Shown here: piece after piece, positions 1,651 through 59,935 of the stretch | How positions within the stretch are numbered: position 1 is the stretch's first letter | Layout of the letters: every line of letters starts with the position of its first letter | Assembly: GCA_900318065.1 (NCBI GenBank) | Contig: ONIY01000004.1 | Span: 41,721-105,720 of the forward strand | DNA length: 64,000 nucleotides | DNA from: an uncultured Prevotellaceae bacterium | GTDB lineage: Bacteria; Bacteroidota; Bacteroidia; Bacteroidales; Muribaculaceae | Direction: 5' to 3' | The notes under the pieces: model-generated | Told to the model about the DNA's origin: nothing | The model's database searches: none | What the model saw: only the letters and a program-made list of their open reading frames with translations | Position numbers and translations under genes: made by a program

Positions 1651-1840
1651 AATGCACAATGTACAATCTTTTTAAATGCACAATGCATAATGCACAATTA
1701 TCCCCTCGGATGCTCGATCGCTCGAATGCTCGAATGCTCGAATGCTTGAACACTCGACCGCTCGATCCCCGCGCCGCAGGCGCTTACTTAACACTTAAAA
1801 CTTCACCCTTAACACTTCACCCACGTTCCACGATCCACCT
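1651..1840. repeat. Composite short tandem repeat element
   Basis: (AATGCAC)n, then (TGCTCGAA)n, CCCCGCGCCGCAGGCGC, (TTAACAC)n and (TTCCACG)n. Confidence 0.85.
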
Positions 1841-2007
1841 TCCAGGTTTCCCTCGCCATAGGCGCTTGATTCGCTTGCTTCGTTGAAAGAAATTGATAAA
1901 TCTTGCATAAATTGTTATTATTTTTGTAATTTTGGCAGATTTTGGATTGAAATATTCTTGTGAGAGATAATAAAATAGCCTTTAAACATTAACTTAACTT
2001 CTTATAT

Positions 2008-4992
2008 ATGAAAAAGATACTATTATTGACCATGACGGCTGTTGTGGCATGGACTGCTGCAATGGCTGTACCGGCAAAACCAGGATTAAACTCCATTAAG
2101 TTGAGCGATGGCTCCACGCTGCAGGTGCAGGCGATTGGCGACGAGTGGCATCACAGCCTCGCTACTGCCGACGGGCTGACTATCGCCCTTGCCGACGACG
2201 GATTTTTCTATTATGTGGCCGCTGGAAACGTGACGCAGGTGCGGGCTCACGATGCCGACCAGCGCAGCGCCAGCGAACTCTCGTTTGTTAACGCCAATAA
2301 GGACCAGTTGACCATTGCGGCACTCTACGACGCCAAGCGGCAGTCGGGCATGCTGCGCAGCGTGCGTCCGCGCGGCATCTCGCCAAGGGCGACTCAGGTG
2401 CCCAACAGCGGTTCGCCACGCGTGCCCATCATTCTGGTGCAGTACACCGACAAGAGCATGAGCAACACCAAGACGCAGTTTCAGGCTCAGTATAACACCA
2501 ACCCCAAGAGTGCGTTCAACTACTTCAAGGACCAGAGTAACAGCCTGTACACTCCGCAATTCGACATCTACGGCATCTATACCTTGCCCAGCAGCCGTGC
2601 CACCTATGGCGGCAACAAGTCTAATGGCGACGACCAGGGCGTGGCGCTGATGGTGGCCGATGCTGTCACTAAGGCAGGCAACGACATCAACTGGGCGCAA
2701 TATGACAACGATGGCGACGGCAAGGCCGACGTGTGCATCGTGGTCTATGCTGGCGTGGGCGAGGCACAGGCAAGCTACACCGTGCCCGAGGCCGTGTGGC
2801 CCTGCCAGTGGAGCCTCTCGTCGGGCGCCTACTATGGCGACGGCCCTGGCCCCATCACACGCAATGGCGTGACAATCGACAAGTTTGCTGTGTTTAACGA
2901 GGTCTCGGGCAGCAACGACAGCGGCACAACGCTTGATGGCGTGGGCACCTTCTGCCACGAGTTCTCGCACTGCCTGGGATTGCCCGACTTCTACGAGACC
3001 AACCGATACAGCCATGGCTACTTTGGCATGGGCTACTGGAGCATTATGGACACCGGCTGCTACAATGGTGGCTCTATCGACGGCGACACCCCCATTGGCT
3101 ACAGTGCCTATGAGAAGAACTTCATGGGATGGATCAACCTCATTACTCCCACCGAGAACACGTTCTACACTCTGCCAGTGTTCAACAGCAAGACCGCTGC
3201 CAACGACCAAGCCATTAAGATCACGGCGTTGAACTCCAACGAGTACTGGATTCTTGAGAACCGCAGGAAGCAGAATTGGGATTATTACATCGACGATGAG
3301 GGTGTTCTCATTACTCATTTCACCTACGTTGAAGACCGCTGGAGCGACAACTCAGTCAACAACCAGAGCGTGCAGCTGGCAACTGTCATGCCTGCCGACA
3401 ATAGCCTCTCAGGATCTAGCCTCGACAAGGATCTCTATGGCGAGACCAATCATGCGTTTGGACCAACGACCAGCCCTGCCATGAAGGCCAACATGACCGC
3501 TGGCGGCTCGCTATCGTCGACGACTGGAGGCGCTGGCGTTGTAGACAAACCCGTGACCGAGATAAACCTCAACAGCAATGGCACTGCCTCGCTGTGGTAT
3601 ATGAAAGGCGCAGCCCCAACAATTTCCGTCACTCCATCGAGCCTGCAATTCCAGGGATATATGGGTGAGACCTATACCAAGACCTTCACCGTTAACGGCA
3701 ACAACCTCACCGGCAACGTCACCATCACCAAGCAAGGCTCCAGCGCCTTCACCGTGTCGCCAGCATCAATCACTGCGGCAAGCGCAGCCAGCGGCGCGCA
3801 GGTGACCGTTACCTATTCTCCCACCGCCGTGGGCAATGCCAGTGCCGTCATCACTATTGCCAGCGCCGGCGCGCAGAGTGTGACCCTCAACGTGACTGGC
3901 ACAGCCCAGGACCGAGTGCCCACTATCGAGGTGGACCCGGCAGCGCTCAGCTTCAATGCCAACCTCTCGTCGACAGTCACCAGGACCCTCACCGTTACCG
4001 GACTGTTCTTGACAAGCGACGTGACAGTGACCCTTAACGACGAGAACGGCGTGTTCAGCGTTACGCCAATGGTCATTCCCGCAGCAAGTGCGGCAGGTGG
4101 CGCGCAAGTGAGCGTGTCGTTCAACTCGGCACAGGAAGGCAACTTCACTGGCTCGCTCACCATTGCCAGCCAGGGCGCGACAAGCAAGACCGTTCAGCTC
4201 AGCGCCATTGCCTTCGAGGGTGGCACTGCCAGCGACACCTATCTCAATCTCGAGAAGTATGAGACCATCGACGAGGCAGGAGCAGCAGTGAGCGGCATGA
4301 ACTCGATTTACCGTTACACCGAGTATGAAGACGACGAAGTTGCTTGGCTCACATTCTCCAACTTTGGCGTGCACATGGCAGCCTCCAAGCAGAACTGGCT
4401 CACAAGCTCGTCGCTCACGCAGTATACCAACGACTGGAATGCCACCGATGTGTTCCTGGGCGACAATTCCTATTTTGGAAGCAACAACAGCTATTCGGTC
4501 TATGGAAGCGGAAACCAGACGTTCTTTGTCACTAACTGCACCCAGGTGAAGGCTCTGGTCAAGGGCACTAGTGGCGGCACCACCTCAAGGGCCACGCTGG
4601 CAATCTATGAGTGCACACTCAACCCCGACGGCACTCTCACTGCCTCGTCCGCGGCAACCGACACTCAGTATAGCATTTCACAGAACGATGCACAAGTAGT
4701 GGCATCGGCAACGCTCGATGCTGCCAAGTTCTACAAGGTTCAGCTCACTGGCGGCGGCTCCTATCCCGACCTCCTGGAGATTGGATTCCAGACCCCGCTT
4801 CAGTCGCCTGCCGTTGGCGTCTTTGGCGACGTGAACCTCGATGGCATGGTGACCACTGTCGACATCACTTGCCTCTACAACTATCTCCTCAACGGCGACA
4901 CAACCTACATCGCCACAAGCGACTTGAACGGCGACGGGCAAGTCACCACAGTCGACATCACAATAATCTACAACATCCTGCTAGGCGATTAA
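2008..4992 (+). CDS. Secreted M6 (immune inhibitor A-like) metalloprotease with Ig-like repeats and C-terminal dockerin-like domain
   Basis: Signal peptide; HEFSHCLGLPDFY zinc motif; WSIMD Met-turn; repeated Ig-like segments; C-terminal duplicated GDVNLDGMVTTVDIT / SDLNGDGQVTTVDIT. Confidence 0.9.
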   Translation: MKKILLLTMTAVVAWTAAMAVPAKPGLNSIKLSDGSTLQVQAIGDEWHHSLATADGLTIALADDGFFYYVAAGNVTQVRAHDADQRSASELSFVNANKDQLTIAALYDAKRQSGMLRSVRPRGISPRATQVPNSGSPRVPIILVQYTDKSMSNTKTQFQAQYNTNPKSAFNYFKDQSNSLYTPQFDIYGIYTLPSSRATYGGNKSNGDDQGVALMVADAVTKAGNDINWAQYDNDGDGKADVCIVVYAGVGEAQASYTVPEAVWPCQWSLSSGAYYGDGPGPITRNGVTIDKFAVFNEVSGSNDSGTTLDGVGTFCHEFSHCLGLPDFYETNRYSHGYFGMGYWSIMDTGCYNGGSIDGDTPIGYSAYEKNFMGWINLITPTENTFYTLPVFNSKTAANDQAIKITALNSNEYWILENRRKQNWDYYIDDEGVLITHFTYVEDRWSDNSVNNQSVQLATVMPADNSLSGSSLDKDLYGETNHAFGPTTSPAMKANMTAGGSLSSTTGGAGVVDKPVTEINLNSNGTASLWYMKGAAPTISVTPSSLQFQGYMGETYTKTFTVNGNNLTGNVTITKQGSSAFTVSPASITAASAASGAQVTVTYSPTAVGNASAVITIASAGAQSVTLNVTGTAQDRVPTIEVDPAALSFNANLSSTVTRTLTVTGLFLTSDVTVTLNDENGVFSVTPMVIPAASAAGGAQVSVSFNSAQEGNFTGSLTIASQGATSKTVQLSAIAFEGGTASDTYLNLEKYETIDEAGAAVSGMNSIYRYTEYEDDEVAWLTFSNFGVHMAASKQNWLTSSSLTQYTNDWNATDVFLGDNSYFGSNNSYSVYGSGNQTFFVTNCTQVKALVKGTSGGTTSRATLAIYECTLNPDGTLTASSAATDTQYSISQNDAQVVASATLDAAKFYKVQLTGGGSYPDLLEIGFQTPLQSPAVGVFGDVNLDGMVTTVDITCLYNYLLNGDTTYIATSDLNGDGQVTTVDITIIYNILLGD

Positions 4993-5057
4993 GCCCGAGT
5001 GGGAGGTGGATCGAGGATCGGGGATCGGGGATTGGGGATTGGAAGATCCTTGGGCAA

Positions 5058-5173
5058 TGTAGGGACAAGGCGTGCCTTGTCCGTATCTCCCCTCTAAGAT
5101 AGAGGGGGCGGGGGGGAGTATGATTTCATCAACAAAAGTTCCCTCACTGTAGGGACAAGGCGTGCCTTGTCCG
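5058..5173. repeat. Two GTAG-REP copies flanking a second palindromic repeat type
   Basis: TGTAGGGACAAGGCGTGCCTTGTCCG at 5058-5083 and 5148-5173; CCCCTCTAAGATAGAGGGG...GGGGAGTATGA at 5087-5123. Confidence 0.85.
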
Positions 5174-5379
5174 TCTGCGGCGCAGAAATCGAAGATCGGG
5201 GATCGGCAAACTTAATAAACCACAGGTTTTTCAGATTAATCTGTTTAATCTGTGGTTTATCTTGACTTTTGCGCGTCTACCTAGTTATATACAAGAAACG
5301 ACAGGGCAAGATGACAGGCAAATGACTGGGCAAAATGACTGTCCAAAAACACAAAAATGACGTTTTTTTCTTCAAATCA

Positions 5380-5410
5380 TTTGTCAATTAAAAAAATTGC
5401 ACTACCTTTG
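5380..5410 (+). promoter_or_regulatory. Bacteroidetes sigmaA promoter of tRNA-Leu
   Basis: TTTG (5380-5383), 19 nt spacer, TACCTTTG (5403-5410): matches the TTTG-N19-21-TAnnTTTG consensus 14 nt before the tRNA. Confidence 0.8.
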
Positions 5411-5424
5411 CAACCGCTTTTCGA

Positions 5425-5508
5425 GCCCAGATGGCGGAATCGGTAGACGCGCTGGTCTCAAACACCAGTGGGGTAACACCCGTGCCGGTTCGACCCCGGC
5501 TCTGGGTA
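5425..5508 (+). tRNA. tRNA-Leu(CAA)
   Basis: GCCCAGA/TCTGGGT acceptor stem, D arm GGCGGAATCGGTAGACGC, anticodon arm CTGGT-CTCAAAC-ACCAG, long variable arm, GGTTCGACCCC T arm. Confidence 0.96.
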
Positions 5509-5509
5509 C
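5497..5509 (+). repeat. att core, tRNA-proximal copy
   Basis: CGGCTCTGGGTAC, identical to 13127-13139. Confidence 0.88.
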
Positions 5510-5590
5510 ATTCCCCACTTTTACCCCACTTACATAAAAAATTAGTATTTTTTGCCGAATTTTGATGTCGAGGTTGGGGTTGTAGGTTGT

Positions 5591-5630
5591 AACAAAAAAG
5601 ACGTTGCCAGACATCACGCCCGACAACGCC
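5591..5630 (-). terminator. Intrinsic terminator after terL
   Basis: Minus strand GGCGTTG...CAACGTC followed by TTTTTTGTT. Confidence 0.7.
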
Positions 5631-5694
5631 AAATCACATTTAAATTTTGCCATGTGGCAACAATTCGCCACAAAGGTAGTCAATTTAATTGATG

Positions 5695-7180: not shown

Positions 7181-7183
7181 GTC

Positions 7184-8397: not shown

Positions 8398-8499
8398 CTT
8401 TTTTTAATCTCCTATTGGGTTGTAAGGTTGTAGGTTGTAGATGGTTTATTCTGTTGATTGTCAGGTTATAATCCCACAATTAACCTACAACCTCAACAA

Positions 8500-14515: not shown

Positions 14516-14613
14516 AGTAAAAATTTTTGTTTATTGTTTGTTTATAGTTTATTGTTTGTAGTTTATAGTTTATGGAAGTAGGAAGCGTAGGAAATAAAAT
14601 AACATCCTGATTT

Positions 14614-22094: not shown

Positions 22095-22372
22095 GTTAAA
22101 AGGTAAAAGGTGAGAGGTGAGAGGGAAGTGGTGAGAGGTGAGAGGTGAGAGGTGAGAGGGAAGTGGTGAGAGGTGAGAGGTGAGAGGTGAGAGGGAAGAG
22201 GGCTCGAATGCTCGATCGTTCGAATGCTCGAGCTCTCGATTGCTCGAAAACTCGATTTCCCATCCCCGATCCTCGATCCCCGATCCCCGCGCCGTAGGCG
22301 CCACGTTCCACATTCCACGTTCCCCGCGCCGCAAGGCGCTAACTTAACACTTAAAACTTAACCCTTAACCCT
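22095..22372. repeat. Composite short tandem repeat element between convergent genes
   Basis: (AGGTGAG)n, (TGCTCGA.)n, (CCCCGAT)n, CGCGCCGTAGGCG, (TTCCACG)n, CGCGCCGCAAGGCG, (TTAACAC)n. Confidence 0.88.
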
Positions 22373-22374
22373 TA

Positions 22375-23406
22375 CTATCTTGTTTCTTCCCTCAGCGTGT
22401 AGCTGTTGCGTTGTTGCTCAAAGGTCTCTGGCGATGCTTTGAGGCGGGCGGTGTCGGCTAGTGGGTTGTAGCTCTCGAGAATGGATTGTGCTGTCACCAC
22501 GCTGGCGCCCTTGAGGGGTGTGGAGGCCTGCTGGGGCGTGATGTGCCAGCCATAGCGACGGTTCAGCGCCTCAACAATCATCGCTGTGCCACGTTGTTTG
22601 CCCTGAAGGCTGTAGCCGGCAATGTGGGGCGTTGCCACCATTGCTTTGTTTAGAAGATTGCGGTTGATGCTGGGTTCTCCCTCCCAGCAGTCGAGCGCCA
22701 GGTCGCCGTGCCATTGCAGCAGGGCCTCGTTGTCGCACACCGCGCCACGGGCGGCGTTGATGATGAGCTTGCAGCGCTGCATGCCATCGAGGAAACTCTT
22801 GTCACACAGGTGCCATGTGGGGTATTTGCCCTCACGGGTGAGTGGCGTGTGAAAGGTGATGATGTCGCACTCGCGTTGGAGCAAGGTGAGAGGTGAGAGG
22901 TGAGAGGGGAGAGGTGAGAGGGGAGAGGTGAGAGGGGAGTGGTGTGCGTTTTCCTCGGCAAGTGGAGGGTCGTTGAGCAGCACGCGGTAGCCCAGCTGGC
23001 GTGCCCAGCGTGCCACGATGCTTCCCACGTGGCCCACGCCCACGATGCCCAGCGTGAGCGGCTGCTTAATGTTGCGCGCTTGCGCCCATTGCAGTATCGA
23101 GGCATGAACCCATTGCGCCACCGCCGGGGCATTGCAGCCGGGTGCGTTCTCCACCGCTATGCCATGATGGCGGCAGTAGTCCAGGTCGATATGGTCCATC
23201 CCAATGGTTGCGGTGCCAATGAATTCCACCTTCGAGCCCTCGAGCAACGCTCGGTCGCAGCGGGTGCGGGTGCGTGTGAGCAGCACCTGTGCATCGCGCA
23301 CGGTGGCGTTGTCTATCTCGCCACCAGGCACATAGGCAACCTCTTGAGCCACAGGCTCAAGTAGTCCTTTCAGGTAGGGGATTTTGCTGTCGGCAACAAT
23401 TTTCAT
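22375..23406 (-). CDS. pdxB: 4-phosphoerythronate dehydrogenase
   Basis: MKIVADSKIPY start, ATIGMDHID, NAPGCNA, GIVGVGHVG, HTPLT, TPHIAGYSLQGK. Start set at ATG 23406 (1-bp overlap with the upstream stop). Confidence 0.93.
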   Translation of the reverse strand: MKIVADSKIPYLKGLLEPVAQEVAYVPGGEIDNATVRDAQVLLTRTRTRCDRALLEGSKVEFIGTATIGMDHIDLDYCRHHGIAVENAPGCNAPAVAQWVHASILQWAQARNIKQPLTLGIVGVGHVGSIVARWARQLGYRVLLNDPPLAEENAHHSPLTSPLSPLPSHLSPLTLLQRECDIITFHTPLTREGKYPTWHLCDKSFLDGMQRCKLIINAARGAVCDNEALLQWHGDLALDCWEGEPSINRNLLNKAMVATPHIAGYSLQGKQRGTAMIVEALNRRYGWHITPQQASTPLKGASVVTAQSILESYNPLADTARLKASPETFEQQRNSYTLREETR

Positions 23407-24395
23407 CAGGCAATAACCATTGCAATGATATAAGCCACGAGCATTGCCACCATGAGCCACATGGTCACGGGTTGGCGTGTCTCATGGGGAGTGATGACAT
23501 ACCAGTGCCCATACTGAATCGCGGCACACAGGTTGAGCAGCGGCATGTAGATGAGGAAGTCGTTGTAGTCAATCGCCATCATCAGCACCACAAATACCGA
23601 CAGGGCTACGAAGAAGTTGTTGTAGGCGCGCACGTGCACACTGTAGTTGAGCATAGTCTTGAAATTGCTCACCGTGAGCAAGACAGTGAGCACCACTGTG
23701 GTGATTGCGATGGTAATGGCCCAGCCACGGGCGGCAAAGGCGGGGGTGCTCTCCCACACCTGCGAGAGCTCGGGAGCCTGGAAGGCACTCAGCGACTCCA
23801 GCCCGGTGCCCAGCACTATCCAGTAGGGCGTCAAGATGCCAAACAAGATGGCAAAGACACCACGCACGTCGAGCACGCGCATGTAGGCAAAGCCCAGGAT
23901 ATATAGCGGGAAGAGCAGGAAGAACACATAGTGATAGATGGTGAAGAACGACAGTAGCGCCATCACCAGGAAGATGCCTTGCGACGCACCGCCGCGCTTG
24001 CCATATTGCTCAAACATGAAGAACAGCGTCACCACTACCACCAGGCACAGCGCAGTGCCGGCAAAGAAGCGGGTGCTCAAGAACGGGTTGATGCCCTGCA
24101 GTAGCACAAACACCGCCGCAAACACGAAGCAGTTGTAGGTCTTGATGTAGCGGAACATGATGTTGAGGGTGACAAGCAGCACGCCTATCACCACATTGGC
24201 AACCACTGCCACGAAGCACGACGTGTCGCTGCTCTCTATCCATGTGGCGATGTTGTGAAACGTGCCATAGCCACGCTGCGGCACCACAAAGTTGCCACTG
24301 GCTATCACCGAGAACACCACAAGCAGCAATATCGCCAGCCCAAAGAACCCGCGATTATTGAAATAGTCTACTATGTAACTGCCTTTCTTTGCCAT
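23406..24395 (-). CDS. Hypothetical polytopic membrane protein
   Basis: 329 aa with many hydrophobic helices; translationally coupled to pdxB. Confidence 0.75.
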   Translation of the reverse strand: MAKKGSYIVDYFNNRGFFGLAILLLVVFSVIASGNFVVPQRGYGTFHNIATWIESSDTSCFVAVVANVVIGVLLVTLNIMFRYIKTYNCFVFAAVFVLLQGINPFLSTRFFAGTALCLVVVVTLFFMFEQYGKRGGASQGIFLVMALLSFFTIYHYVFFLLFPLYILGFAYMRVLDVRGVFAILFGILTPYWIVLGTGLESLSAFQAPELSQVWESTPAFAARGWAITIAITTVVLTVLLTVSNFKTMLNYSVHVRAYNNFFVALSVFVVLMMAIDYNDFLIYMPLLNLCAAIQYGHWYVITPHETRQPVTMWLMVAMLVAYIIAMVIA

Positions 24396-24409: not shown

Positions 24410-24638
24410 GAGGATGGGGGATGGGGGATCGAGGATCGAGGATCGGGGATGGGGGATCGAGCGGTTGAGCAATCGAGTTTTCGAGCAATCGAGTTCTCGA
24501 GCGGTCGAGCAATCGAGTTCTTGAGCAATCGATGTTGAGATTGAGATGAGCAACTTCGTCCTTTGTCCTTCGTCCTTTGTCCTTTGTCCTTTGTCCTTCG
24601 TCCTTCCACGTTCCACGTTTCACGCGCCGCAGGCGCAC
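24410..24638. repeat. Composite short tandem repeat element
   Basis: (GGATCGA/GGATGGG)n, (TCGAGCAA)n, (CTTTGTC/CTTCGTC)n, (TTCCACG)n, CGCGCCGCAGGCG. Confidence 0.85.
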
Positions 24639-26219: not shown

Positions 26220-26324
26220 AATTGTCTCAATATGTTTTTAATTATTTCACTACATGTGTGAAATTCGAGTGCAAAGGTACTAAATAGTTTTCAGTTATCG
26301 GTAATAGCTCACCACATTTTTTGG

Positions 26325-26525
26325 TTTTCTTGGTTTATAGTTGATAGTTTATGGTTTATGGTTTATGGAAGGCAAGTTTGGTTTATTGTTGATAGTTTAT
26401 GGTTTATGGAAGGAAGAGGCGAGACCAGAGGCACGGCAGTCTCACAATCGGTCGGTAGGTCGCAAGGCACCGCCTTGCGAAAAAAAACTGAAAACTGAAA
26501 ACTGACCACTGATAACTGATAACTC
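26325..26525. repeat. Heptamer arrays upstream of metG
   Basis: (GTTTATG/GTTTATA)n and (ACTGAAA/ACTGATA)n; TACCTTTG -7 box follows at 26538-26545. Confidence 0.75.
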
Positions 26526-26577
26526 AAAACTTTTTCCTACCTTTGCAAAAAATTTCAGTTTAATAGAGTAATAACTT

Positions 26578-38918: not shown

Positions 38919-39137
38919 ATGACCGTTTCATTTCAATATTACAACGAGAGCGAGGATGCTAGCGAGACTTTCCGTTTCGCCAGCGAGGAGAAAGCCATGA
39001 ACAAGTTCTGCGAACTGGCGGAGCTCATCAGGGAGCAGTTTGACAACTGCCCTGACGCCGAGGTAATCGACGAACCCGACTTCTTCGGAATAATCGACCA
39101 CGACTCTGGCGACTGGGCTAAAGTGATAATACAGTAG
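38919..39137 (+). CDS. Small acidic hypothetical protein
   Basis: 72-aa ATG ORF with coding-like composition between two repeat arrays. Confidence 0.55.
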   Translation: MTVSFQYYNESEDASETFRFASEEKAMNKFCELAELIREQFDNCPDAEVIDEPDFFGIIDHDSGDWAKVIIQ

Positions 39138-39350
39138 AACGTGGAACGTGGAACGTGGAACGAGGAACGAGGGAAGAGGGAAGAGGGAAGAGGGAAATGC
39201 ACAATGCATAATTAATCCCTCGAATGTTCGACCGCTCGAATGTTCGACTGCTCGACCGTTCGACTGCTCGAATGTTCGACCGCTCGACCGTTCGACTGCT
39301 CGATTTCCCATCCCCGATCTCCTATCCGCGTCCGCAGGCGTCGCGCGGCG
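39138..39350. repeat. Composite short tandem repeat element
   Basis: (GTGGAAC)n, (GAGGGAA)n, (AATGCAC)n, 8-mer CTCGA/TTCGA array, CCCCGAT, CCGCAGGCG. Confidence 0.85.
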
Positions 39351-39421
39351 TCAAAAAAAATCTCAAATTGATTTTGCCATTAACTTCTATTGCCGTAACT
39401 TTGCACGATTTTTAGAAGTAA

Positions 39422-43025: not shown

Positions 43026-43132
43026 ACCAGATAAACTTTTTTGTGAAATGATAGTTTGAGGCAACAAAATTAGAAATATTTTTTCACATTTAGACCACAA
43101 AGAAAGAATTTTTGCACAAAATCTCCTCTTTT

Positions 43133-43330
43133 TAAATGCTCAATGCACAATTAATCCCTCGACTGCTCGAAAACTTGACTGCTCGAGTGCTCGATCCCCC
43201 ATCCCCGCTCCCGATCCCCGCGCCGCAGGCGCAACTTAACACTTAACACTTAACACTTAACACTTTACCCTTAACACTTAATTTTCCATCCTCGTTCCAC
43301 CTTCCACGTTCCACGTTTCACGTTTCACAA
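43133..43330. repeat. Composite short tandem repeat element
   Basis: AATGCAC, 8-mer CTCGA array, CCCGATC, CCCCGCGCCGCAGGCGC, (TTAACAC)n, (TTCCACG)n. Confidence 0.85.
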
Positions 43331-43487
43331 AAAGGTAAAAAATCAAAAAATCACACATTATATTATAGAAATTGCGAGTTTTTATCTAATTTTGCACCCG
43401 ATTTTTAATGTTTAGAGCGTTGCCACTTGGATTTCAGAGCGCGTAACGCATTGATAATAAAGCAAAAAGCAGATAATAAACTTAGAT

Positions 43488-45839: not shown

Positions 45840-46075
45840 GGGCTAAGTGTTAAGTTTTAAGTGTAAAGTTTTAAGTGTGAAGTTTTAAGTGTAAAGTTTT
45901 AAGTGTGAAGGGTTAAGTTTTAAGTGTGAAGTGGCGCCTGCGGCGCGGGGATCGAGGGTCGGAGATCGGGGATCGAGGATCGGAAATCGGGCTCGGGAAT
46001 TGGGCGCCTTGTAGGGACAAGGCGTGCCTTGTCCGCCGGAACGAAGTTAAGTGTAAAGTTTTAAGACTAAAAACC
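45840..46075. repeat. Composite repeat (reverse orientation) with an embedded GTAG-REP
   Basis: (TAAGTGT)n, GCGCCTGCGGCGCGGGG, (GATCGGG)n, REP at 46010-46035. Confidence 0.85.
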
Positions 46076-47084: not shown

Positions 47085-47136
47085 ACTTAAGTTTCTATTG
47101 TAACGCTGGAAATAGTTAAACAGCTGTGTCTTAATT

Positions 47137-47256
47137 CCCCCTCTAAGATAGAGGGGGATAAAGGGGGAGTATGACAGTGACTCAAATGATATTTGTTTGG
47201 CTGAATTTCAAAATAATTTTCATACTCCCCCCAGCCCCCTCTACTTAGAGGGGGAG
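47137..47256. repeat. Inverted doublet of the CCCCTCTAAGATAGAGGGG palindromic repeat
   Basis: Copies at 47137-47173 and 47220-47256 (inverted); same family as 5087-5123. Confidence 0.8.
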
Positions 47257-49059: not shown

Positions 49060-49255
49060 CTGAGCCAGCCGCAGGTGCTTCTTAAACCTTAGCACTTAAC
49101 CCTTAACACTTTACTTCGTCCCCTGCGTCGCAGGCGGACAAGGCCGCCTTGTCCCTACAAAGCCCCATCCATCATCCCCGCCCCTCGATTCCCCATCCCC
49201 GCTCTCCGATTCCCCATCCCCGATCCCCGCGCCGCAGGCGCCACTTAACCCTTAT
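49060..49255. repeat. Composite repeat with a REP copy
   Basis: GCCGCAGG, (TTAACAC)n, REP variant at 49135-49159, (CCCCGAT)n, CCCCGCGCCGCAGGCGC. Confidence 0.8.
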
Positions 49256-49518
49256 TCTCTCTCTATCTCCATGAGAATTTAGAAAAGTGCTTTAGGAACA
49301 GAAATTCGTTTACAAGTAGAAATTTTTCGACAATTTTATTAATACCTTAAAAATCAGCAATATAAAAAGTTTTCCACAGGATTGTTAATAACTTTTCTGT
49401 TAAAAAATGAAATTTTTTCTATTTATGTTTGTAAATTTTGATTTTTATTTTGTAATTTTACACCCCAATACAGAAGTAACAAAAAAATCTGGTTGAAAAA
49501 CTATTCAAAAAAAGAGAG

Positions 49519-52977: not shown

Positions 52978-53014
52978 TAACCACTTAAACAACAATGTAA
53001 TAAATAAGTAAAAA

Positions 53015-54481
53015 ATGGATACAAAGATATTAAAGCAATTACTGGAGTCAATCGACGTGCTCAGCATCGTGGGTGATGTTGACAAGACCATCGTCGATGT
53101 CACTTGCGACTCAAGAACAGTGAAAGAGGGGAGCCTCTTTGTGGCTGTGAGGGGTGTGAGCGTCGATGCCCACCAGTTCCTGCCGCAGGTGGCGCAAGAT
53201 GGTGCCGCAGCGGTGGTGTGTGAGCAACTGCCCAGCGCTCCCAGCGAGCATGTCACCTATGTGCTGGTGAAGGACAGCAACATCGCCCTTGCCCACCTGG
53301 CAAGCGCATGGTATGACTATCCCTCGTCGCAACTCAAGCTCGTGGGCGTTACCGGCACCAATGGCAAGACAACCATCGCCACTCTGCTTTATGAGCTTGC
53401 CAATCTCATGGGATTCAAGGCGGGACTGCTCTCTACGGTGCGCAACATCGTCGACAAGCGCGTGGAGCCCGCTAAGCAAACCACCCCCGACCACCTCACC
53501 CTCAACCGTCTCTTGCACGAGATGGTACAGGCAGGATGTGAATACGCCTTCATGGAGGTGAGTTCGCACGCTTGCGTGCAGCACCGCGTCGACGGACTCA
53601 AGTTTGCTGGTGGCATCTTCACTAATCTCACCCGCGACCACCTCGACTATCACGGCACTGTCGACAACTATATCAAGGCAAAGAAGATGTTCTTCGACTC
53701 GCTCGGCAGCGACGCTTTTGCAGTCATCAATATCGACGACAAGGTGGGACCAGTGATGGTGCAGAACACCAAGGCTAAGAAATACACCTACTCGCTGCTC
53801 ACTCTCGCCGACTTCAAGTGCCGCATGATTGAGGACCGGCTCGACGGCACTTTGCTTAACATCAATGGCACTAACGTCGACGTGCTGTTCACCGGGCGTT
53901 TCAATGCCTACAATCTCACCTCGGTCTATGCCGCAGCGCTGCTGCTGGGATGGGACAAGGAGCAGGTGCTGGTGAAGATGAGCCAGCTGGTGCCTGTGGC
54001 TGGACGATTCCAGACCATGCGCTCGCCACGTGGATACATCGCTATAGTTGACTATGCCCACACCCCCGACGCTCTCATCAACGTGCTCGACGCTGCCCTT
54101 GAGGTGATGAACGGGCGGGGCACTCTCATCACCGTGTGTGGCTGTGGTGGCAACCGCGACAGCGGCAAGCGACCCATCATGGCACGTGAGGCTGCCTTGC
54201 GCAGTGGCCGACTCATCCTCACCAGCGACAATCCACGCTTCGAGGACCCCGACGCCATCTTGCGCGACATGGAGGCTGGCCTGCCAGCCGACAGGCTCTC
54301 GACCACTCTCACCATCACCGACCGCCGTCAGGCAATCAAGACCGCCTGCAGTCTCGCCCAGCCTGGCGACGTAGTGCTCGTGGCAGGCAAGGGACATGAG
54401 GACTACCAGGAGGTGAAAGGTGTGAAACACCACTTCGACGACCGCGAAGAGATAATGAAAATCTTCGAGACCGAGAAATGA
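53015..54481 (+). CDS. murE: UDP-MurNAc-dipeptide--DAP ligase
   Basis: GVTGTNGKTT, MEVSSH, DYAHTPD, DNPR, AGKGHEDYQ. Confidence 0.97.
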   Translation: MDTKILKQLLESIDVLSIVGDVDKTIVDVTCDSRTVKEGSLFVAVRGVSVDAHQFLPQVAQDGAAAVVCEQLPSAPSEHVTYVLVKDSNIALAHLASAWYDYPSSQLKLVGVTGTNGKTTIATLLYELANLMGFKAGLLSTVRNIVDKRVEPAKQTTPDHLTLNRLLHEMVQAGCEYAFMEVSSHACVQHRVDGLKFAGGIFTNLTRDHLDYHGTVDNYIKAKKMFFDSLGSDAFAVINIDDKVGPVMVQNTKAKKYTYSLLTLADFKCRMIEDRLDGTLLNINGTNVDVLFTGRFNAYNLTSVYAAALLLGWDKEQVLVKMSQLVPVAGRFQTMRSPRGYIAIVDYAHTPDALINVLDAALEVMNGRGTLITVCGCGGNRDSGKRPIMAREAALRSGRLILTSDNPRFEDPDAILRDMEAGLPADRLSTTLTITDRRQAIKTACSLAQPGDVVLVAGKGHEDYQEVKGVKHHFDDREEIMKIFETEK

Positions 54482-54646
54482 GGATCGAGGATCGGGGATC
54501 GAGGATCGAGGATCGAGACACAGCCCAGCCCCCGGAAAATCCCGGAAATCCCGGAAATCCCGGAAATCCCGGAAAATCCGGAAAAACTGACAACTGATAA
54601 CTGACAACTGATAACTGACAACTGATAACTGATAACTGACTACTGA
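54481..54646. repeat. 7-mer/9-mer/7-mer tandem arrays between murE and mraY
   Basis: (GGATCGA)n, (CCCGGAAAT)n, (CTGACAA/CTGATAA)n. Confidence 0.88.
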
Positions 54647-54649
54647 ATC

Positions 54650-55969
54650 ATGCTATACTACCTGTTTAGATTTTTAGAACAATACAACATCCCTGGGTCG
54701 CACATGTGGCAGTACATCTCGTTCCGTGCGCTGCTCACGCTCATCCTCTCGCTCGTGCTCTCGGCATGGCTGGGTGAGAAGTTCATCCACTACATGCGCA
54801 AGCGCAAGATTGGCGAGACTCAGCGCGATGCCAGCATCGACCCATTTGGAGAGAAAAAGGTGGGAACACCATCGATGGGCGGCCTTGTAATCATCACAGC
54901 CATCCTCTTGCCTGTGCTGCTGCTGGGACGCATGCGCAACATCTACATCATCCTCATGATCATCACCACCGTGTGGCTGGGATTCCTGGGATTTTGCGAC
55001 GACTACATCAAGATCTACCGCAAGCACAAGGAAGGCCTGAAAGGCAAGTATAAGATTGTGGGACAAGTGAGCATTGGCCTCATCGTGGGACTGGTGCTGT
55101 GGCTCAGCCCCGACGTGGTGATGCACGAAAACGTGGTGAAGGTGCACAACCCCAAGCAGTCGACTCTTGTGCAGCAGGCCAATAATGCCAGCGACGATGC
55201 ACAAAACACCGTTGTCGTGCACAAGACCAAGGCCGAGAAGTCGCTAAAGACCACCATCCCCTTTGTCAAGAACCACAACCTTGACTATGGCGCGCTCACC
55301 AAGTGGATGGGCGACTGGGGAGGTGCTGCAGGATGGGCGCTGTTTGTGATCATGACGATTCTTGTGGTCACTGCAGTGAGCAATGGTGCCAACCTCAACG
55401 ACGGCATGGACGGCATGTGTGCCGGCAACTCGGCTATCATGGGCGTGGCACTGGGTATACTCGCCTATGTGAGCTCCAATTTTGAGTATGCTGCCTATCT
55501 TAATATAATGTATATCCCCGATAGTCAGGAACTGGTGGTGTTTATGTGCGCTTTCGTTGGTGCACTCATCGGTTTCCTGTGGTACAACGCCTATCCGGCA
55601 CAGATGTTCATGGGCGACACCGGCTCGCTCACCATTGGAGGTATCATTGGTGTGTGTGCCGTGATTATTCACAAGGAGCTGCTCGTGCCCATCTTGTGTG
55701 GCGTGTTCCTCATGGAGAGCCTTAGCGTGATTATCCAAACTCAGGTCTACAAGGTCTACAAGCGCAAGGGCAAGAAGGTGAGAGTGTTCCGCTCTACACC
55801 CATTCATGACAACTTTCGCAAGCTCGACAAGGACTTGGCGCCCGACAGCCACTATGTGCTGCGCAACTGGCCACGCACCATGTCGCACGAGTCGAAAATC
55901 ACGCTGCGATTCTGGATTGTAACTATCATCCTGGCAGCATTCACAATCATCACTTTGAAAATAAGATAA
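54650..55969 (+). CDS. mraY: Phospho-MurNAc-pentapeptide transferase
   Basis: GTPSMGG, DDYIK, NLNDGMDG, FMGDTGS. Confidence 0.97.
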   Translation: MLYYLFRFLEQYNIPGSHMWQYISFRALLTLILSLVLSAWLGEKFIHYMRKRKIGETQRDASIDPFGEKKVGTPSMGGLVIITAILLPVLLLGRMRNIYIILMIITTVWLGFLGFCDDYIKIYRKHKEGLKGKYKIVGQVSIGLIVGLVLWLSPDVVMHENVVKVHNPKQSTLVQQANNASDDAQNTVVVHKTKAEKSLKTTIPFVKNHNLDYGALTKWMGDWGGAAGWALFVIMTILVVTAVSNGANLNDGMDGMCAGNSAIMGVALGILAYVSSNFEYAAYLNIMYIPDSQELVVFMCAFVGALIGFLWYNAYPAQMFMGDTGSLTIGGIIGVCAVIIHKELLVPILCGVFLMESLSVIIQTQVYKVYKRKGKKVRVFRSTPIHDNFRKLDKDLAPDSHYVLRNWPRTMSHESKITLRFWIVTIILAAFTIITLKIR

Positions 55970-56026
55970 TAGAGATAAAAAAGTCATCATAGTAAAACGA
56001 GAATTAAGAAAAACAGTATTAAGGAA

Positions 56027-57364
56027 ATGAAACGTTTAGTAGTAATTGGCGGAGGAGAGAGTGGAGTTGGCGCAGCAGTGCTGGGCAAAGTGAAAGGTAT
56101 GGACGTGTGGCTCACCGACATGGGAACAATAGCACCACGCTACAAGGAAATCCTCAACAAGTGGGAGATCAACTGGGAAGAAGGTCATCACACCGAGGAA
56201 AAGGTGCTTGCTGCCCATGAGATTGTCAAGAGTCCAGGCGTTCCCTTGACGGCTCCGCTCATCGTCAAAGCAATGGCCAAAGGCATTCCTGTCATCTCTG
56301 AGATAGAGCTGGCAGGACGCTACACCGACGCCAAAATGGTTTGTATTACCGGCAGTAACGGCAAGACCACCACTACATTGCTCACCTACCACATTTTCAA
56401 GGAGGCGGGCCTGAATGTTGGTCTTGCCGGGAATGTCGGCAAGAGTCTGGCTATGCAGGTGGCTACCGAGAAGCACGACGTTTATGTCATCGAGCTGAGC
56501 AGTTTCCAGCTCGACAACATGTATGACTTCAAGGCCAACATCGCCGTGATGCTTAACATCACCCCCGACCACCTCGACCGCTACGACCACAAGATGGAGA
56601 ACTATACCGCCGCCAAGTTCCGCATCATGCAGAACCAAACGAGCGACGACGCCTTCATCTACTGGGAGGATGACCCCATTATCTCGGCGCAACTCAAGAA
56701 CATGAAGAGCGAGGCGCGCATGTTCCCATTCAGTGCTCGCGACGACAAGTCGTGCACTGCATTCCTGAGCGAGGGGCAGCTGTGCTTCAACGTTGAGGGC
56801 GACGAGTGGAATATGCCACGCGAGGAACTGTCGCTCAAGGGGTTGCACAATGTCTACAACTCGATGGCAGCTGGTATCAGCGCATCGCTCATGGACATTA
56901 AGAAGGAAAACATTCGCAAGGCGCTTGCCAGCTTTGAGGCAGTGGAGCACAGGCTGGAATATGTGCGCACCTTGCATGGTGTGAAATATATCAACGACTC
57001 TAAGGCTACCAATGTCAACAGCACCTGGTATGCACTCGAGAGCATGAGCGAACCAGTGGTGCTCATCCTCGGTGGCAAGGACAAGGGTAACGACTACAGC
57101 GAGATAGAGGCGCTTGTGAGCAAGAAGGTGGCTGCCATCGTGTGCCTGGGAGTGGACAACACTAAGCTGCACGCCTTCTTCGATGGCAAGGTGGCTGTGG
57201 TGGAAGACGCGCGCAGCATGCAGGAGTGCGTGGACAAGTGCAGCAAGCTTGCTCACGACGGCCAAACGGTGCTTCTCTCGCCTTGCTGTGCAAGCTTCGA
57301 CCTCTTCAAGAGCTATGAGGACCGCGGCGAGCAGTTCAAGGAGTGTGTTAATGCTCTCGTCTAA
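56027..57364 (+). CDS. murD: UDP-MurNAc-Ala--D-Glu ligase
   Basis: ITGSNGKTTT, ELSSFQL, HRLE, NDSKATN, LILGGKDK. Confidence 0.97.
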   Translation: MKRLVVIGGGESGVGAAVLGKVKGMDVWLTDMGTIAPRYKEILNKWEINWEEGHHTEEKVLAAHEIVKSPGVPLTAPLIVKAMAKGIPVISEIELAGRYTDAKMVCITGSNGKTTTTLLTYHIFKEAGLNVGLAGNVGKSLAMQVATEKHDVYVIELSSFQLDNMYDFKANIAVMLNITPDHLDRYDHKMENYTAAKFRIMQNQTSDDAFIYWEDDPIISAQLKNMKSEARMFPFSARDDKSCTAFLSEGQLCFNVEGDEWNMPREELSLKGLHNVYNSMAAGISASLMDIKKENIRKALASFEAVEHRLEYVRTLHGVKYINDSKATNVNSTWYALESMSEPVVLILGGKDKGNDYSEIEALVSKKVAAIVCLGVDNTKLHAFFDGKVAVVEDARSMQECVDKCSKLAHDGQTVLLSPCCASFDLFKSYEDRGEQFKECVNALV

Positions 57365-57413
57365 GGAATGATTTGGAAAAAAAGAATGTATAACAATGTA
57401 ATATCAAGGTAAA

Positions 57414-58733
57414 ATGAGTGAGAAAGCATCAAGATATATAGAGATGTCGCGCCGTTATGGCGATATTTGGATTTGGGGCATCTATCTCACACTCATCGTG
57501 TTCTCGATTGTTGAGTCCTACTCGGCGTCGAGTCGTGATGTGGCTAAAATGGGTGTGTATGAACCGGTCATCAGGCAGGTGGTGTTCCTGGCGATGGGCG
57601 CTGTGGCTGTGGTGGGACTGAGCCGCATCAACTACAACAACCGCATGTTGTTGCTGGTGCTCATTCCGCTGCTGTGGATCTTTACTGTTCTGAGCCTTAT
57701 CTATGTGATGGTTAACGGTGAGATTATCAATGGCGCGCAACGTGCGTTCACCATTCCTGGCATTGGGCTCACGGTGCAGCCTGCCGAGCTTGCCAAGCTC
57801 TCGGCGGTGACGGCGCTGGCTTATATTATGGCAAAGAACCAGCAGGACCGCGATGTGTCGGTGTGGGGACTCGTGCTCTCTACTGTGGTGGTGGCGGTCT
57901 TTGGCGCTCTGATGTTCCAGAGCGGACTCACCAACACGCTCCTGCTCATGTGCATCAGTGGCTCTATGTTCCTCATTGGCGGTGCCAGGTGGAAGAAACT
58001 CATTGTCCTGGCACTGGTATATGCTGTTGTCGCAGGGGTGTTCTATGTGTGGAAAGAGGCGAGCGATAAGCGTGAGGCCAACATGAAGCAACTTGCCAAC
58101 ACCGAGAACGCTACAACCGACAAAAAGAAGGTTGACCGCACCGACGTTCGCAATGAGCGCATGTATAACTACTTCCACCGCGACTCGCTCATTTATAAAG
58201 ATGTGACCAGCGAGAACAGCCAGGAGATGTTCTCCATCATGGCGCAGGCACATGGGGGACTAACGGGAGTGGGAATTGGCAACTCGCGTGAGTGCAGCCG
58301 CCTGCCACTGGCGTTCAGCGACTACATCTACTCGATTATTATTGAGGAAACGGGGCTCATAGGCGGCGTGTTCTTGCTGATACTCTACCTGTGGCTGCTC
58401 TCAAGAGCTGCAATGATCGCGCGGCGTTGCCACCGTGTGCTGCCGGCTCTGCTGGTAATTGGCATGGCGGCGATGATCACGTTCCAGGCGCTCTTCCACA
58501 TGGCCATCAACACTGGGGTGTTCCCCGTCTCGGGACAGCCCTTGCCGCTCATCTCTAAGGGTGGCACCTCGATTATCGTGACAAGTATTGCCTTTGGTGT
58601 GATGCTCAGCGTGAGCCGCACAATTAATAATATAACTAACAAAAAGAACAAGGATGAGGGCATTGCGCTGCCAAGCGGTCTCGATGCCGAGAATCCTACC
58701 GAAATTCCTGTAAAAAATGAGTGGAAACAATAA
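57414..58733 (+). CDS. ftsW: SEDS glycosyltransferase
   Basis: QPAELAK, SDYIYSIIIEE, LPLISKGGTS. Confidence 0.93.
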   Translation: MSEKASRYIEMSRRYGDIWIWGIYLTLIVFSIVESYSASSRDVAKMGVYEPVIRQVVFLAMGAVAVVGLSRINYNNRMLLLVLIPLLWIFTVLSLIYVMVNGEIINGAQRAFTIPGIGLTVQPAELAKLSAVTALAYIMAKNQQDRDVSVWGLVLSTVVVAVFGALMFQSGLTNTLLLMCISGSMFLIGGARWKKLIVLALVYAVVAGVFYVWKEASDKREANMKQLANTENATTDKKKVDRTDVRNERMYNYFHRDSLIYKDVTSENSQEMFSIMAQAHGGLTGVGIGNSRECSRLPLAFSDYIYSIIIEETGLIGGVFLLILYLWLLSRAAMIARRCHRVLPALLVIGMAAMITFQALFHMAINTGVFPVSGQPLPLISKGGTSIIVTSIAFGVMLSVSRTINNITNKKNKDEGIALPSGLDAENPTEIPVKNEWKQ

Positions 58734-59832
58734 TCAGTTGAAAGTGCTCGTCAGTGGTGGAGGTACAGGTGGACACATCTTCCCGGCACTGTCGATAGCC
58801 AATGAGATTAAGCGTCGCGTGCCTCAGGCTCAAATTCTCTTTGTGGGAGCCGAGGGACGCATGGAGATGGAAAGGGTGCCGGCTGCCGGTTATGAGATTA
58901 AGGGCCTGCCGGTGCGGGGTTTTGACCGCAAGAACCTGTTGCGCAACGTCAAGGTGCTCATGGACCTGCGACGCAGCATGAAACTCGCACGCAACATCCT
59001 CAAGGAGTTTGAGCCTAATGTGGCTGTGGGTGTGGGTGGATATGCCAGCGGACCCATGCTCAAGGAGTGCCAGAAGGCGGGAATTCCCACTCTGCTGCAG
59101 GAGCAGAACTCCTATGCCGGGGTGACCAACAAGCTGCTTGCCAAGAAGGCACAATGCATCTGTGTCGCCTATGAGGGCATGGAGCGGTTCTTCCCTGCCG
59201 ACAAGATTGTGATGACTGGCAACCCCGTGCGACGCAATCTGCTCGAGTGCAACGCCACGGTCGAGGAGGCACGACAGGCCTTTGGGCTCGACACTGCCAA
59301 GCGCACGATACTGATAATTGGCGGCAGCCTGGGAGCACGCACCATCAACGACAGCATCATCGCCGGGCTTGACGTGATTGCGCAGCACGACGATGTGCAA
59401 GTGATATGGCAAACGGGTAAAATCTATGACGACCGTTGCCGCGAGGCGCTTGAGGCATCTAAGGCTGCCAATGTGAAGCAGATGGCGTTTATCAGCAATA
59501 TGGATCTGGCTTATCGCGCTGCCGACCTCGTGATCTCACGTGCCGGAGCCAGCTCAATCAGCGAGCTGCAACTGCTGGGCAAGGCATCGATTCTTGTGCC
59601 ATCGCCTAATGTTGCCGAGGACCATCAAACCAAGAACGCCATGGCTCTGGTCAACCACAACGCGGCTCTGATGATTCCCGATGCCGAGGCTGGCAACAAG
59701 CTTGTTGATGTTATGCTCAACACCATTGGGGAAGAGGCAGTGCTTCAAAAACTTGGCGACAACGTTGAGAAAATGGCGCTGCGCAACGCGGCCGAGGTAA
59801 TCGTCGACAAGGTGCTGCAGATTGCAAGATAG
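58717..59832 (+). CDS. murG: Lipid II GlcNAc transferase
   Basis: GGGTGGHIFP, GGYAS, EQNS, GGSLGA, SRAGA, DHQ. Confidence 0.97.
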   Translation: MSGNNNQLKVLVSGGGTGGHIFPALSIANEIKRRVPQAQILFVGAEGRMEMERVPAAGYEIKGLPVRGFDRKNLLRNVKVLMDLRRSMKLARNILKEFEPNVAVGVGGYASGPMLKECQKAGIPTLLQEQNSYAGVTNKLLAKKAQCICVAYEGMERFFPADKIVMTGNPVRRNLLECNATVEEARQAFGLDTAKRTILIIGGSLGARTINDSIIAGLDVIAQHDDVQVIWQTGKIYDDRCREALEASKAANVKQMAFISNMDLAYRAADLVISRAGASSISELQLLGKASILVPSPNVAEDHQTKNAMALVNHNAALMIPDAEAGNKLVDVMLNTIGEEAVLQKLGDNVEKMALRNAAEVIVDKVLQIAR

Positions 59833-59837
59833 AGCGT

Positions 59838-59935
59838 TTTTAAGTGTTAAGTTTTAAGTGTGAAGTAATAAGTGCTAAGTGTTAAGTGTTAAGTGTTAAG
59901 TGCTAAGTGTTAAGTGTTGAATGTTAAGATGTTAA
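59838..59935. repeat. (TAAGTGT)n heptamer array between murG and murC
   Basis: Tandem TAAGTGT/TAAGTGC units. Confidence 0.85.

Follow-up and report, generated by a model that had tools for sequence, protein, structure and literature searches.

Introduction

How do runs of different 7-, 8- and 9-nt tandem repeats come to stand in the same order and the same orientation in many unrelated intergenic regions of one bacterial genome? This question is raised by a 64,000-nt stretch of DNA from an uncultured Prevotellaceae bacterium (contig ONIY01000004.1, positions 41,721 to 105,720; hereafter the window), in which about 17 intergenic spacers bear such arrays, 10 of them composites in which blocks of different units follow one another, often around a short hairpin-forming sequence that we call the hub. 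An earlier note on this DNA, made from its letters alone, had listed the units in about 15 regions and proposed from their conserved order and polarity that they represent either a propagating non-autonomous unit or templated repeat synthesis rather than simple slippage; it set them beside the heptamer repeats of filamentous cyanobacteria, and suggested a comparison of orthologous loci and a search for a co-distributed enzyme. In this report, we describe composites that are copies of a few ancestral mosaics, dispersed to many unrelated intergenic sites and gained or lost between sister species. On the sequence evidence, we think it probable that the repeats are non-autonomous copied mosaics, selfish in appearance and comparable to repetitive extragenic palindromic (REP) sequences and bacterial interspersed mosaic elements (BIMEs), that were later diversified by slippage.

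Ordered and polar arrays across the genome

The host genome (G000; other G numbers denote congeners) is a 2.98-Mb metagenome-assembled genome (MAG) of 97 contigs and 50% GC, assembled from short reads, so that the array unit counts follow the assembly; gene calls and spacer limits are those of our own simple codon-usage caller. We named the heptamer families A (AATGCAC), C (GATCCCC), D (GTTCCAC), E (ACTTAAC), F (AGGTGAG), G (CTTTGTC), I (AACTGAT) and J (TGGTTTA), the 8-mers B (GCTCGANN) and M (TACTCTAC), and a further unit K (CCCGGAAAT), with the prefix rc for a reverse complement and H for the hub, a 13-nt sequence (GCGCCGCAGGCGC) with the stem-loop GCGCC-GCA-GGCGC. Tandem Repeats Finder returned 122 rows in the window, mostly intergenic and of period 7, 8 or 9. 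Every unit named in the earlier note was recovered where that note had placed it, M being an addition, and direct reading of 1600-1900 and 43080-43400 gave AATGCAC, NNNCTCGA 8-mers, CCCCGAT, CGCGCCGCAGGCGC, ACTTAAC and then TTCCACG. Allowing up to one mismatch, we counted 11 copies of the hub 11-mer CGCCGCAGGCG in the window; the expectation was 1.68±1.14, and 0 of 100 shuffles gave as many.

Across the genome, the same program gave 778 rows of period 7, against 117 and 175 for periods 6 and 10, and about 1.6% of the sequence lies within arrays of period 7, 8, 9, 14 or 16. We classified some 930 blocks, which form 213 composites of at least two blocks (55 of at least four), and about 340 of the 1697 intergenic spacers, or about one in five, carry a classified array. 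The main families comprise 49-116 blocks each, with a median of 4-7 units per block and a maximum of 28, and the arrays are mostly 30-330 nt long; family I (AACTGAT/AACTGAC/AAACTGA) has 116 blocks with a median of 6.6 units. The exact hub is present in 82 copies, identical in sequence.

The order of these blocks is far from random. The concentration of adjacent pairs (bigrams) was 0.042, against 0.0102±0.0004 (maximum 0.0119) in 2000 shuffles within composites that kept the content of each composite, and the conserved order and polarity from which the earlier note had argued thus hold in a genome-wide census. Counted as forward to reverse order in the same orientation, polarity was 47:1 for H>E, 26:1 for C>H, 34:13 for D>H, 31:1 for M>I, 20:0 for F>M, 18:0 for J>F, 15:0 for B>C, and 13:0 for both A>B and rcG>B. 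Two main chains pass through the hub, namely (A / rcG / F)-B-C-H-E(-D) and REP-A-(C/D)-H-E, and two begin with J, namely J-linker-F-M-I and J-linker-hairpin-REP-B-I, which may be written J-X-I with X a structured unique core (REP-A and REP-B are hairpins described below). Where one composite holds several hubs, they have the same orientation, as at C69:28638-28960, where H-D is repeated five times with a period of 56-57 nt (C numbers denote contigs).

Higher-order tandems of 55-58 nt, with 3-5 copies each, were seen there and at C8:3389-3515 and C24:2882-3100; their units consist of the hub with D or E units, or of a REP-A variant with a linker. A CRISPR reading of the hub arrays of about 57-nt period was ruled out because the 'spacers' are not unique, being near-identical and built of D/E units. 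In addition, the contig ends C40:1-130 and C48:73100-73295 carry the same gene 3' end (…TEYRKAYGR*) followed immediately by rcE-rcH-rcD; this gene probably belongs to a multicopy insertion sequence (IS) that adjoins hub composites and breaks the assembly.

Composites as copied mosaics, gained and lost between sister species

Copying is recorded in the non-repetitive parts of the composites. A 22-nt linker, GGAAGRCAGTGGYGAGATTAGG, occurs 29 times, in each case immediately 3' of a J block, and leads from there into F or into the second arm of a hairpin; it contains the F unit GGTGAGA, which suggests that F was born from the linker. The 13 full J-F-M-I copies have in common aperiodic stretches of 33-48 nt that cross block junctions, and their 400-nt flanks have no mutual similarity. 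The A>B junction is conserved as AATT-RNN-CCCTCGA. Such linkers, and aperiodic sequence shared over up to 48 nt between unrelated loci, are more than simple in-place slippage can explain, as the earlier note had suspected from order and polarity.

Comparison of orthologous spacers, which that note had proposed, revealed that whole composites differ between sister species at the murE-mraY, murG-murC, J-F-M-I and topA spacers. The murE-mraY spacer measures 168 nt in G000 and 12-69 nt in most congeners (12-33 nt in distant ones); it is 62 nt with only 3.5 I units in G015 and 177 nt with different units in G021. Between murG and murC, 13 rcE units in G000 correspond to five at the same site in G006, an A block in G014 and no array in G015. 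A J-F-M-I spacer of 135 nt in G000 is 33 nt long in G014, where it holds a single TAACTGA. From the topA stop codon to the next gene, G000 has about 250 nt (E-REP-A-C-H-E), G015 has 27 nt and G014 has 37 nt, so that about 215 nt are inserted relative to G014 and G015, and the residual flanks still align. Upstream of the conserved topA and metG promoters, the filler differs species by species. A related observation in G015 (L113-L114) is an 88-nt run of GAAGTAA-type heptamers between ftsL and ftsI, where most congeners have a 4-nt gene overlap; the run is either a new spacer or an extension of ftsL.

Hairpin cores and RAYT-like genes

Three hairpins lie at the cores of the composites. As DNA, the hub forms a stem of 5 bp and a loop of 3 nt (-5.8 kcal/mol, z -2.0). 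The bases after it are AAC, TAC or CAC, with which the E block also begins; no inverted doublets and no clear tag were seen for it. REP-A, GGACAAGGC-ACG-CCTTGTCC-CTAC (GGACAAGGCACGCCTTGTCC then CTAC), has a GTAG tag at one end (GTAGGGACAAGGC...) and a fold of -7.2 kcal/mol (z -2.7). It has 85 pattern matches in the genome, and many REP-A copies form head-to-head pairs about 65 nt apart. The stem covaries: AAGGC/GCCTT in 51 copies, AACGC/GCGTT in 34, ACAGC/GCTGT in 8 and ATGGC/GCCAT in 2. The two hairpins are associated, REP-A lying within 200 nt upstream of 12 of the 82 hubs in the same orientation (1, 0 and 1 in three control configurations), and the 5' flank of REP-A often bears the hub 11-mer (CGCCGCAGGC-GGAC...). 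REP-B, TCGCAAGGC-ACC-GCCTTGCGA (TCGCAAGGCACCGCCTTGCGA), has the strongest fold (-10.6 kcal/mol, z -4.5); it has 18 loci and lies in about 19 copies of the module J-linker-hairpin-ACAATCGGTYGGCAGG-REP-B-I, and no GTAG tag was seen on it. As judged from sequence, the hairpin cores are under structural constraint. A further dispersed palindrome, CCCCTCTAAGATAGAGGGGG, is paired around 'GAGTATGA…' segments and adjoins REP-A copies (window 5090-5125 and 47090-47250).

A search with PF01797 pointed to six genomic sites. Four full-length paralogues of about 320-345 aa (C9:19318-20352, C70:4937-5911, C53:30460-31464 and C48:6778-7734) resemble REP-associated tyrosine transposases (RAYTs), and the further Y1 genes are one for a 271-aa RAYT-like protein (C36:17113-17928) and two IS200-like genes. 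The best NCBIfam match of the RAYT-like proteins is NF047646, REP-associated tyrosine transposase, at 36-63 bits against a cut-off of 80; the HUH motif MPDHxH (H117, H119) and Y180-x3-NP are invariant in their alignment. The long paralogues end in an extra domain of about 150 aa, for which no match was found in Pfam, NCBIfam or the PDB, and the AlphaFold model of the 344-aa protein, with a predicted local distance difference test (pLDDT) score of 53, was too poor for a fold search. The RAYT-like genes inspected have their own tandem hairpin repeats on both flanks, private to each gene and of 11, 25 or 55 nt for the long copies of G000. The C9 gene has REP-B on both sides and then F and C blocks; around the C70 gene there are rcF-type heptamers, an I block and a CGCCGC-hairpin repeat of 55 nt. 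The C36 gene is bordered on each side by a 32-nt unit, GGAAAAAGGGGACGGTTCCTTTTTTCCGTTTTC, repeated three times in tandem, a textbook REPtron layout.

The long RAYT-like family is present in 36 of 47 congeners with 1-13 matches each, and the flanks of orthologs in other species are not generally array-rich, G006 excepted. REP-B is confined to two of the 47, with 18 loci in G000 and three in G006. The C9-like gene of G006 (on C81) is 56% identical to that of G000, the best match in every other genome is at most 48% identical, and two of the three REP-B copies of G006 lie 1-54 nt from it. Comparative genomics thus ties REP-B to one RAYT-like gene by co-distribution in two genomes, with adjacency in both; the enzyme co-distribution envisaged in the earlier note is borne out for REP-B, and no such partner was found for the hub or for REP-A.

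Distribution across relatives

By its MetRS, TopA and division and cell wall (dcw) genes, the host is a member of Bacteroidales. Its methionyl-tRNA synthetase (MetRS) is 94% identical to that of an 'uncultured Prevotellaceae' MAG and 72-83% identical to those of many Bacteroidales MAGs and isolates; a penicillin-binding protein, a Cleaved_Adhesin protein, peptidase C69 and the entire dcw cluster are also encoded in the window. The hub is expanded essentially in this species only, with 82 copies against 0-5 in 24 congeners and none in 16 other families; among about 185,000 species genomes, only 5 contain the exact hub>E junction. The same C-hub-E junction is present in the independent rumen assemblies RUG12310, RUG378 and UBA3754. 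REP-A is limited to a subclade (85 copies in G000, 23 in G006, 6 in G015, 4 in G001 and 1 in G010). Heptamer density, taken as period-7 rows per 100 kb in congener samples of 13-100 kb, is 26 genome-wide and 61 in this contig for G000, 33 for G015, 29 for G013, 21 for G021, 17 for G006, 16 for G020, 2.7 for G017 and 0 for G024. The unit vocabularies are mostly species-specific, and the nearest relatives have A, E, I and F in common. I-type arrays of at least four units occur in 24 of 301 Bacteroidales genomes and 22 of 209 genera, G000 being by far the richest. We lean, with fair confidence, towards a rumen-type, uncultured host in which mosaic repeats are a lineage-specific trait of one genus.

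An exact hub that runs into AACTTAAC and TTAAC-type heptamers, with ACAGTGN heptamers upstream, was also seen at 5960-5980 of L202 (JAILFF010000319.1), a MAG labelled 'Ruminococcus sp.'; their presence under a Firmicute label could reflect mis-binning, transfer or chance.

A copying model and its rivals

In the model that we consider probable, composites would spread as non-autonomous units whose hairpins are recognised by RAYT-like HUH/Y1 single-strand DNA transposases, REP-B being the one hairpin with co-distribution backing for the enzyme link. After insertion, replication slippage would lengthen or shorten each block, and new blocks may originate from neighbouring unique sequence, as F from its linker. 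Selection would then keep only copies that fit between a stop codon and the next promoter or start, and the I block, of TAACTGA type, may act as an A-rich leader beside the ATG.

Several observations weigh against this model. Neither the hub nor REP-A could be matched to a cognate enzyme, and no Y1 gene of the genome is flanked by either; the IS200-like gene C9:50-607 was considered as the REP-A enzyme and rejected, its distribution being different from that of REP-A. Across 15 congeners, RAYT-like copy number is unrelated to heptamer density, and G001 (a MAG 89% complete) has arrays and five hubs yet no member of the 330-aa family. Inspection of the edges of the 13 J-F-M-I and 31 B-containing composites revealed neither terminal inverted repeats nor target duplications, ends were not fixed, and composites begin and finish with differing blocks. 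Finally, a single TAACTGA lies at the orthologous position in G014 and L001, and the I block may accordingly grow in place from a resident leader motif and not arrive with an element; alternatively, resident TAACTGA motifs may be preferred landing or recombination sites.

The spread could instead be free of any enzyme of its own, with homologous recombination or gene conversion between arrays copying blocks together with linkers and slippage doing the rest. Exchange within common blocks is expected to produce combinatorial shuffles, and these are present (A-B-I, F-B-I, rcG-K-I, rcC-M-I and rcC-B-C); in addition, the lack of fixed ends and target duplications is what such exchange would leave, and the same orthologous spacer holds different blocks in different species. 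Conversion, however, requires homology on two sides and cannot seed an array-free spacer, such as the ancestral spacers of 12-37 nt in congeners, and it does not predict the co-distribution of REP-B with a RAYT-like gene. We regard this explanation as possible though unlikely.

The position of the blocks relative to genes bears on a second alternative, in which functional cis-element arrays arose in place, the units being sites for host factors and their order a functional layout of the spacer (past the stop, hairpin, ahead of the start). TAACTGA, for instance, would act beside start codons as a translational or post-transcriptional signal, and the hairpins would stabilise 3' ends. Within-block copy number differs between loci, and the blocks abut stop and start codons. 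Seventy-five I blocks face a co-oriented start codon, 59 of them at a distance of at most 20 nt (median 6 nt), and E ends lie a median of 9 nt upstream of a start; where the neighbour is a convergent stop, the median is 2 nt. At the other side of the spacer, A and J begin a median of 5 and 8 nt, and rcG and rcC a median of 1 and 12 nt, past a co-oriented stop, and J-F-M-I occupies the whole stop-to-start spacer at at least 12 loci. I, M, A and B are aligned with transcription (for I, 64 co-oriented against 18 anti-oriented), an alignment limited to the J-F-M-I and A/B blocks. The positions of I before starts and of J, A, rcG and rcC after stops speak for cis elements, as do the lone TAACTGA at the same place in G014 and L001, the occurrence of I-type arrays in 22 Bacteroidales genera and the TAACTGA repeats reported upstream of starts in Beggiatoaceae, cyanobacteria and five Bacteroidetes (PMC4679880). 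Against it, the phase of the I blocks relative to the ATG is not fixed, and hub modules lie in either orientation to genes without preference (39 co-oriented, 30 anti-oriented). Moreover, identical non-repetitive linkers and the same variant order at unrelated loci exclude an independent origin, sister species differ in their unit vocabulary, and most congeners lack arrays in their essential-operon spacers. As an account of the origin of the arrays, it seems to us rather unlikely.

Block orientation compared with local GC skew gave no consistent signal of replication-strand bias, in a fragmented MAG in which skew and gene-strand bias are themselves uncorrelated. Hub pairs enclose ordinary genes, none of them a transposase gene, and a few further blocks of the genome stand inside called open reading frames (ORFs).

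It is improbable, in our estimate, that the long RAYT-like proteins themselves make the polar heptamer blocks, by repeated cleavage and re-joining beside a hairpin, and that the host has co-opted the resulting modules. If this were so, the arrays would be enzymatic products with a built-in direction, the modules would serve as Shine-Dalgarno-independent leaders and intercistronic spacers with J after the stop and I before the start, and the TAACTGA arrays at start codons in three phyla would be accounted for.

Templated synthesis from an RNA template by a reverse transcriptase (RT) or telomerase-like enzyme, the other option of the earlier note, fares worse. The genome has two RT genes, one like those of retrons or abortive infection (Abi) systems and one like those of diversity-generating retroelements (DGRs), and the fixed order and polarity would suit a template; neither gene, however, is flanked by arrays or hubs, and block lengths vary freely among copies, unlike the product of a fixed template, which makes this explanation very improbable. 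An artefact of short-read assembly is scarcely credible: unit counts could be mis-assembled in a MAG of 97 contigs, but the arrays are mostly short, congeners assembled independently have the same blocks at the same sites (rcE at murG-murC in G006, I at murE-mraY in G015), and the hub junction recurs in MAGs of other projects.

Features of the window

The arrays of the window are collected in Table 1. An IS110-type element (window about 36164-37526; gene 36290-37312 on the minus strand) sits within an A block, which resumes on either side of it (…ATAATGCAC / element / AATGCACAATT…); this agrees with the known tendency of insertion sequences to target REP-like repeats. The segment 5510-13139, beside tRNA-Leu (5425-5508), was skipped whole by the codon-usage gene caller and is consistent with foreign DNA. 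An Rfam scan of the window found tRNA only.

Table 1. Repeat arrays and hairpins of the window (positions in nt from its first letter)
Position	Strand	Feature	Context
235..325		REP-A inverted doublet, similar to a REP doublet forming a hairpin (REPIN): 235-258 on -, 302-325 on +	
1675..1886	+	Composite A(1675-1698)-B(1712-1765)-one C unit-hub(1771-1783)-E(1786-1817)-D(1821-1848)	5' of M6 peptidase gene
5008..5182	-	rcC (5008-5039), two REP-A (5059-5082 and 5149-5172, both -), hub-like CGCCGCAGACG (5172-5182)	
14527..14573	+	J block, TGGTTTA/TTGTTTA	Right after gene boundary
22097..22374	+	Composite F-B-C-hub variant CGCCGTAGGCG (22290-22300)-D-second hub variant-E	
22884..22944	+	F block, AGGTGAG/AGGGGAG, 8.7 units	Within long ORF (22375-23460, -) instead of a spacer
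24412..24636		Two back-to-back arms: rcC(24412-24459) and rcB(24456-24532) on -; G(24554-24605)-D(24604-24624)-hub(24624-24636) on +	
26317..26531	+	Module J-linker-hairpin(GAGAC..GTCTC)-ACAATCGGTCGGTAGG-REP-B(26460-26480)-I(26484-26531)	Ends at conserved metG promoter region (TAccTTTG)
36075..37610		rcE-rcH(36086-36098)-rcD-hub variant(36125-36135); split A block; A-B(37527-37610)	A block split by IS110-type insertion
38783..38915	+	Complete J-F-M-I module	Fills entire 135-nt stop-to-start spacer
39137..39352	+	rcD-F-A-B-C, then degenerate hub GCGTCCGCAGGCGTCGC	
43133..43353	+	Composite A-B-C-hub(43220-43232)-E-D	Upstream of conserved topA promoter
45844..46066	-	E-REP-A(46011-46034)-C(45946-46005)-hub(45934-45946)-E(45844-45933), read on - strand	
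49081..49260	+	E-hub-like 5' flank CGTCGCAGGCG-REP-A(49136-49158)-C(49174-49229)-hub(49229-49241)-E	
54480..54646	+	rcC x5 from within the stop codon, K (CCCGGAAAT) x6, I x9	murE-mraY spacer, 168 nt; ends 3 nt before ATG
59840..59935	-	rcE x13	murG-murC spacer

Discussion

Our analysis extends heptamer arrays, known in cyanobacteria and giant sulfur bacteria, to uncultured gut and rumen Bacteroidales, in an extreme form and with a grammar. The link of REP-B to a specific HUH/Y1 transposase makes the seeding and spread of short tandem intergenic repeats testable. Because the arrays lie inside essential operons, such as the dcw cluster, and against start codons, changes in unit number could alter expression, and such effects would concern bacteria without Shine-Dalgarno-led initiation. 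The arrays also matter for annotation and assembly, since they cause mis-called starts and stops and assembly breaks.

The earlier note had viewed the repeats through the short tandemly repeated repetitive (STRR) sequences of cyanobacteria, and tandem intergenic heptamers of several families (A, C, D, E, F, G, I and J) are indeed a likeness. STRR heptamers and small dispersed repeats (SDRs) were reportedly described in heterocystous cyanobacteria by Mazel in 1990 and Elhai in 2008. They comprise many intergenic heptamer families, with tiny hairpin-bearing mobile elements within the arrays. To our knowledge, a genome-wide fixed block order has not been reported for them. The present repeats belong to a different phylum and have different unit sequences, and the cyanobacterial frame does not apply to a Bacteroidales host. 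The long simple sequence repeats (LSSRs) of 5-11 nt, in the summary of Mrazek 2007 given in PMC4679880, are similar in favouring a heptamer period and in the likely role of slippage in length change; the composites described here are multi-unit and ordered and have hairpin cores, unlike LSSRs, which that summary presents as single-unit arrays (PMC4679880).

Closer to one of our blocks are the TAACTGA direct repeats that lie just 5' of start codons in the three groups already named (MacGregor 2015, PMC4679880), beside which other heptamer assemblages are found in Gramella, Aequorivita and Elizabethkingia (PMC4679880). Family I is the same heptamer, AACTGAT being a rotation of it with N-ACTGA-N variants, and it is likewise tandem, intergenic and forward, finishing a few nucleotides before start codons. 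In contrast to those repeats, I is here part of an ordered mosaic that also comprises conserved linkers and hairpins, and its 116 blocks compare with 2-14 sets in the Bacteroidetes of that study.

The lack of terminal inverted repeats and target-site duplications at the 13 J-F-M-I and 31 B-containing composites sets them apart from miniature inverted-repeat transposable elements (MITEs). The REP/REPIN-RAYT and BIME systems of Proteobacteria (PMC2817692, Nunvar 2010; PMC3116915, Bertels & Rainey 2011; PMC3733652, Di Nocera 2013) offer more likenesses. As in those systems, high-copy extragenic hairpins are present, REP-A having a GTAG tag and inverted doublets; palindromic units and motifs form a mosaic of fixed order, frequently clustered in tandem and located past coding regions; HUH/Y1 RAYT-like genes with hairpins of their own stand alongside; and insertion sequences land in the repeats. 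There are also differences. Where those systems have short unique motifs between hairpins, the linkers here are long polar tandem runs of 7-9-nt units with a vocabulary of about 12 units; most hairpins are single and share one orientation (hub-hub, REP-A-hub), and do not alternate as in BIMEs; the hub has a stem of only 5 bp without a clear tag, unlike a REP; and the proteins, at about 330 aa, have the extra C-terminal domain and score below the NCBIfam cut-off for RAYTs. The host, too, is a member of Bacteroidales, unlike those of the systems cited; GTAG REPs have been found in Proteobacteria, Cyanobacteria, Chloroflexi and the Planctomycetes-Verrucomicrobia-Chlamydiae (PVC) group, and not in Bacteroidetes (Di Nocera 2013, PMC3733652). 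Together, BIME and REP-RAYT systems are the closest known relatives of these arrays in kind, from which the latter are distinguished by heptamer-block linkers, co-oriented hairpins, host phylum and long RAYT-like proteins.

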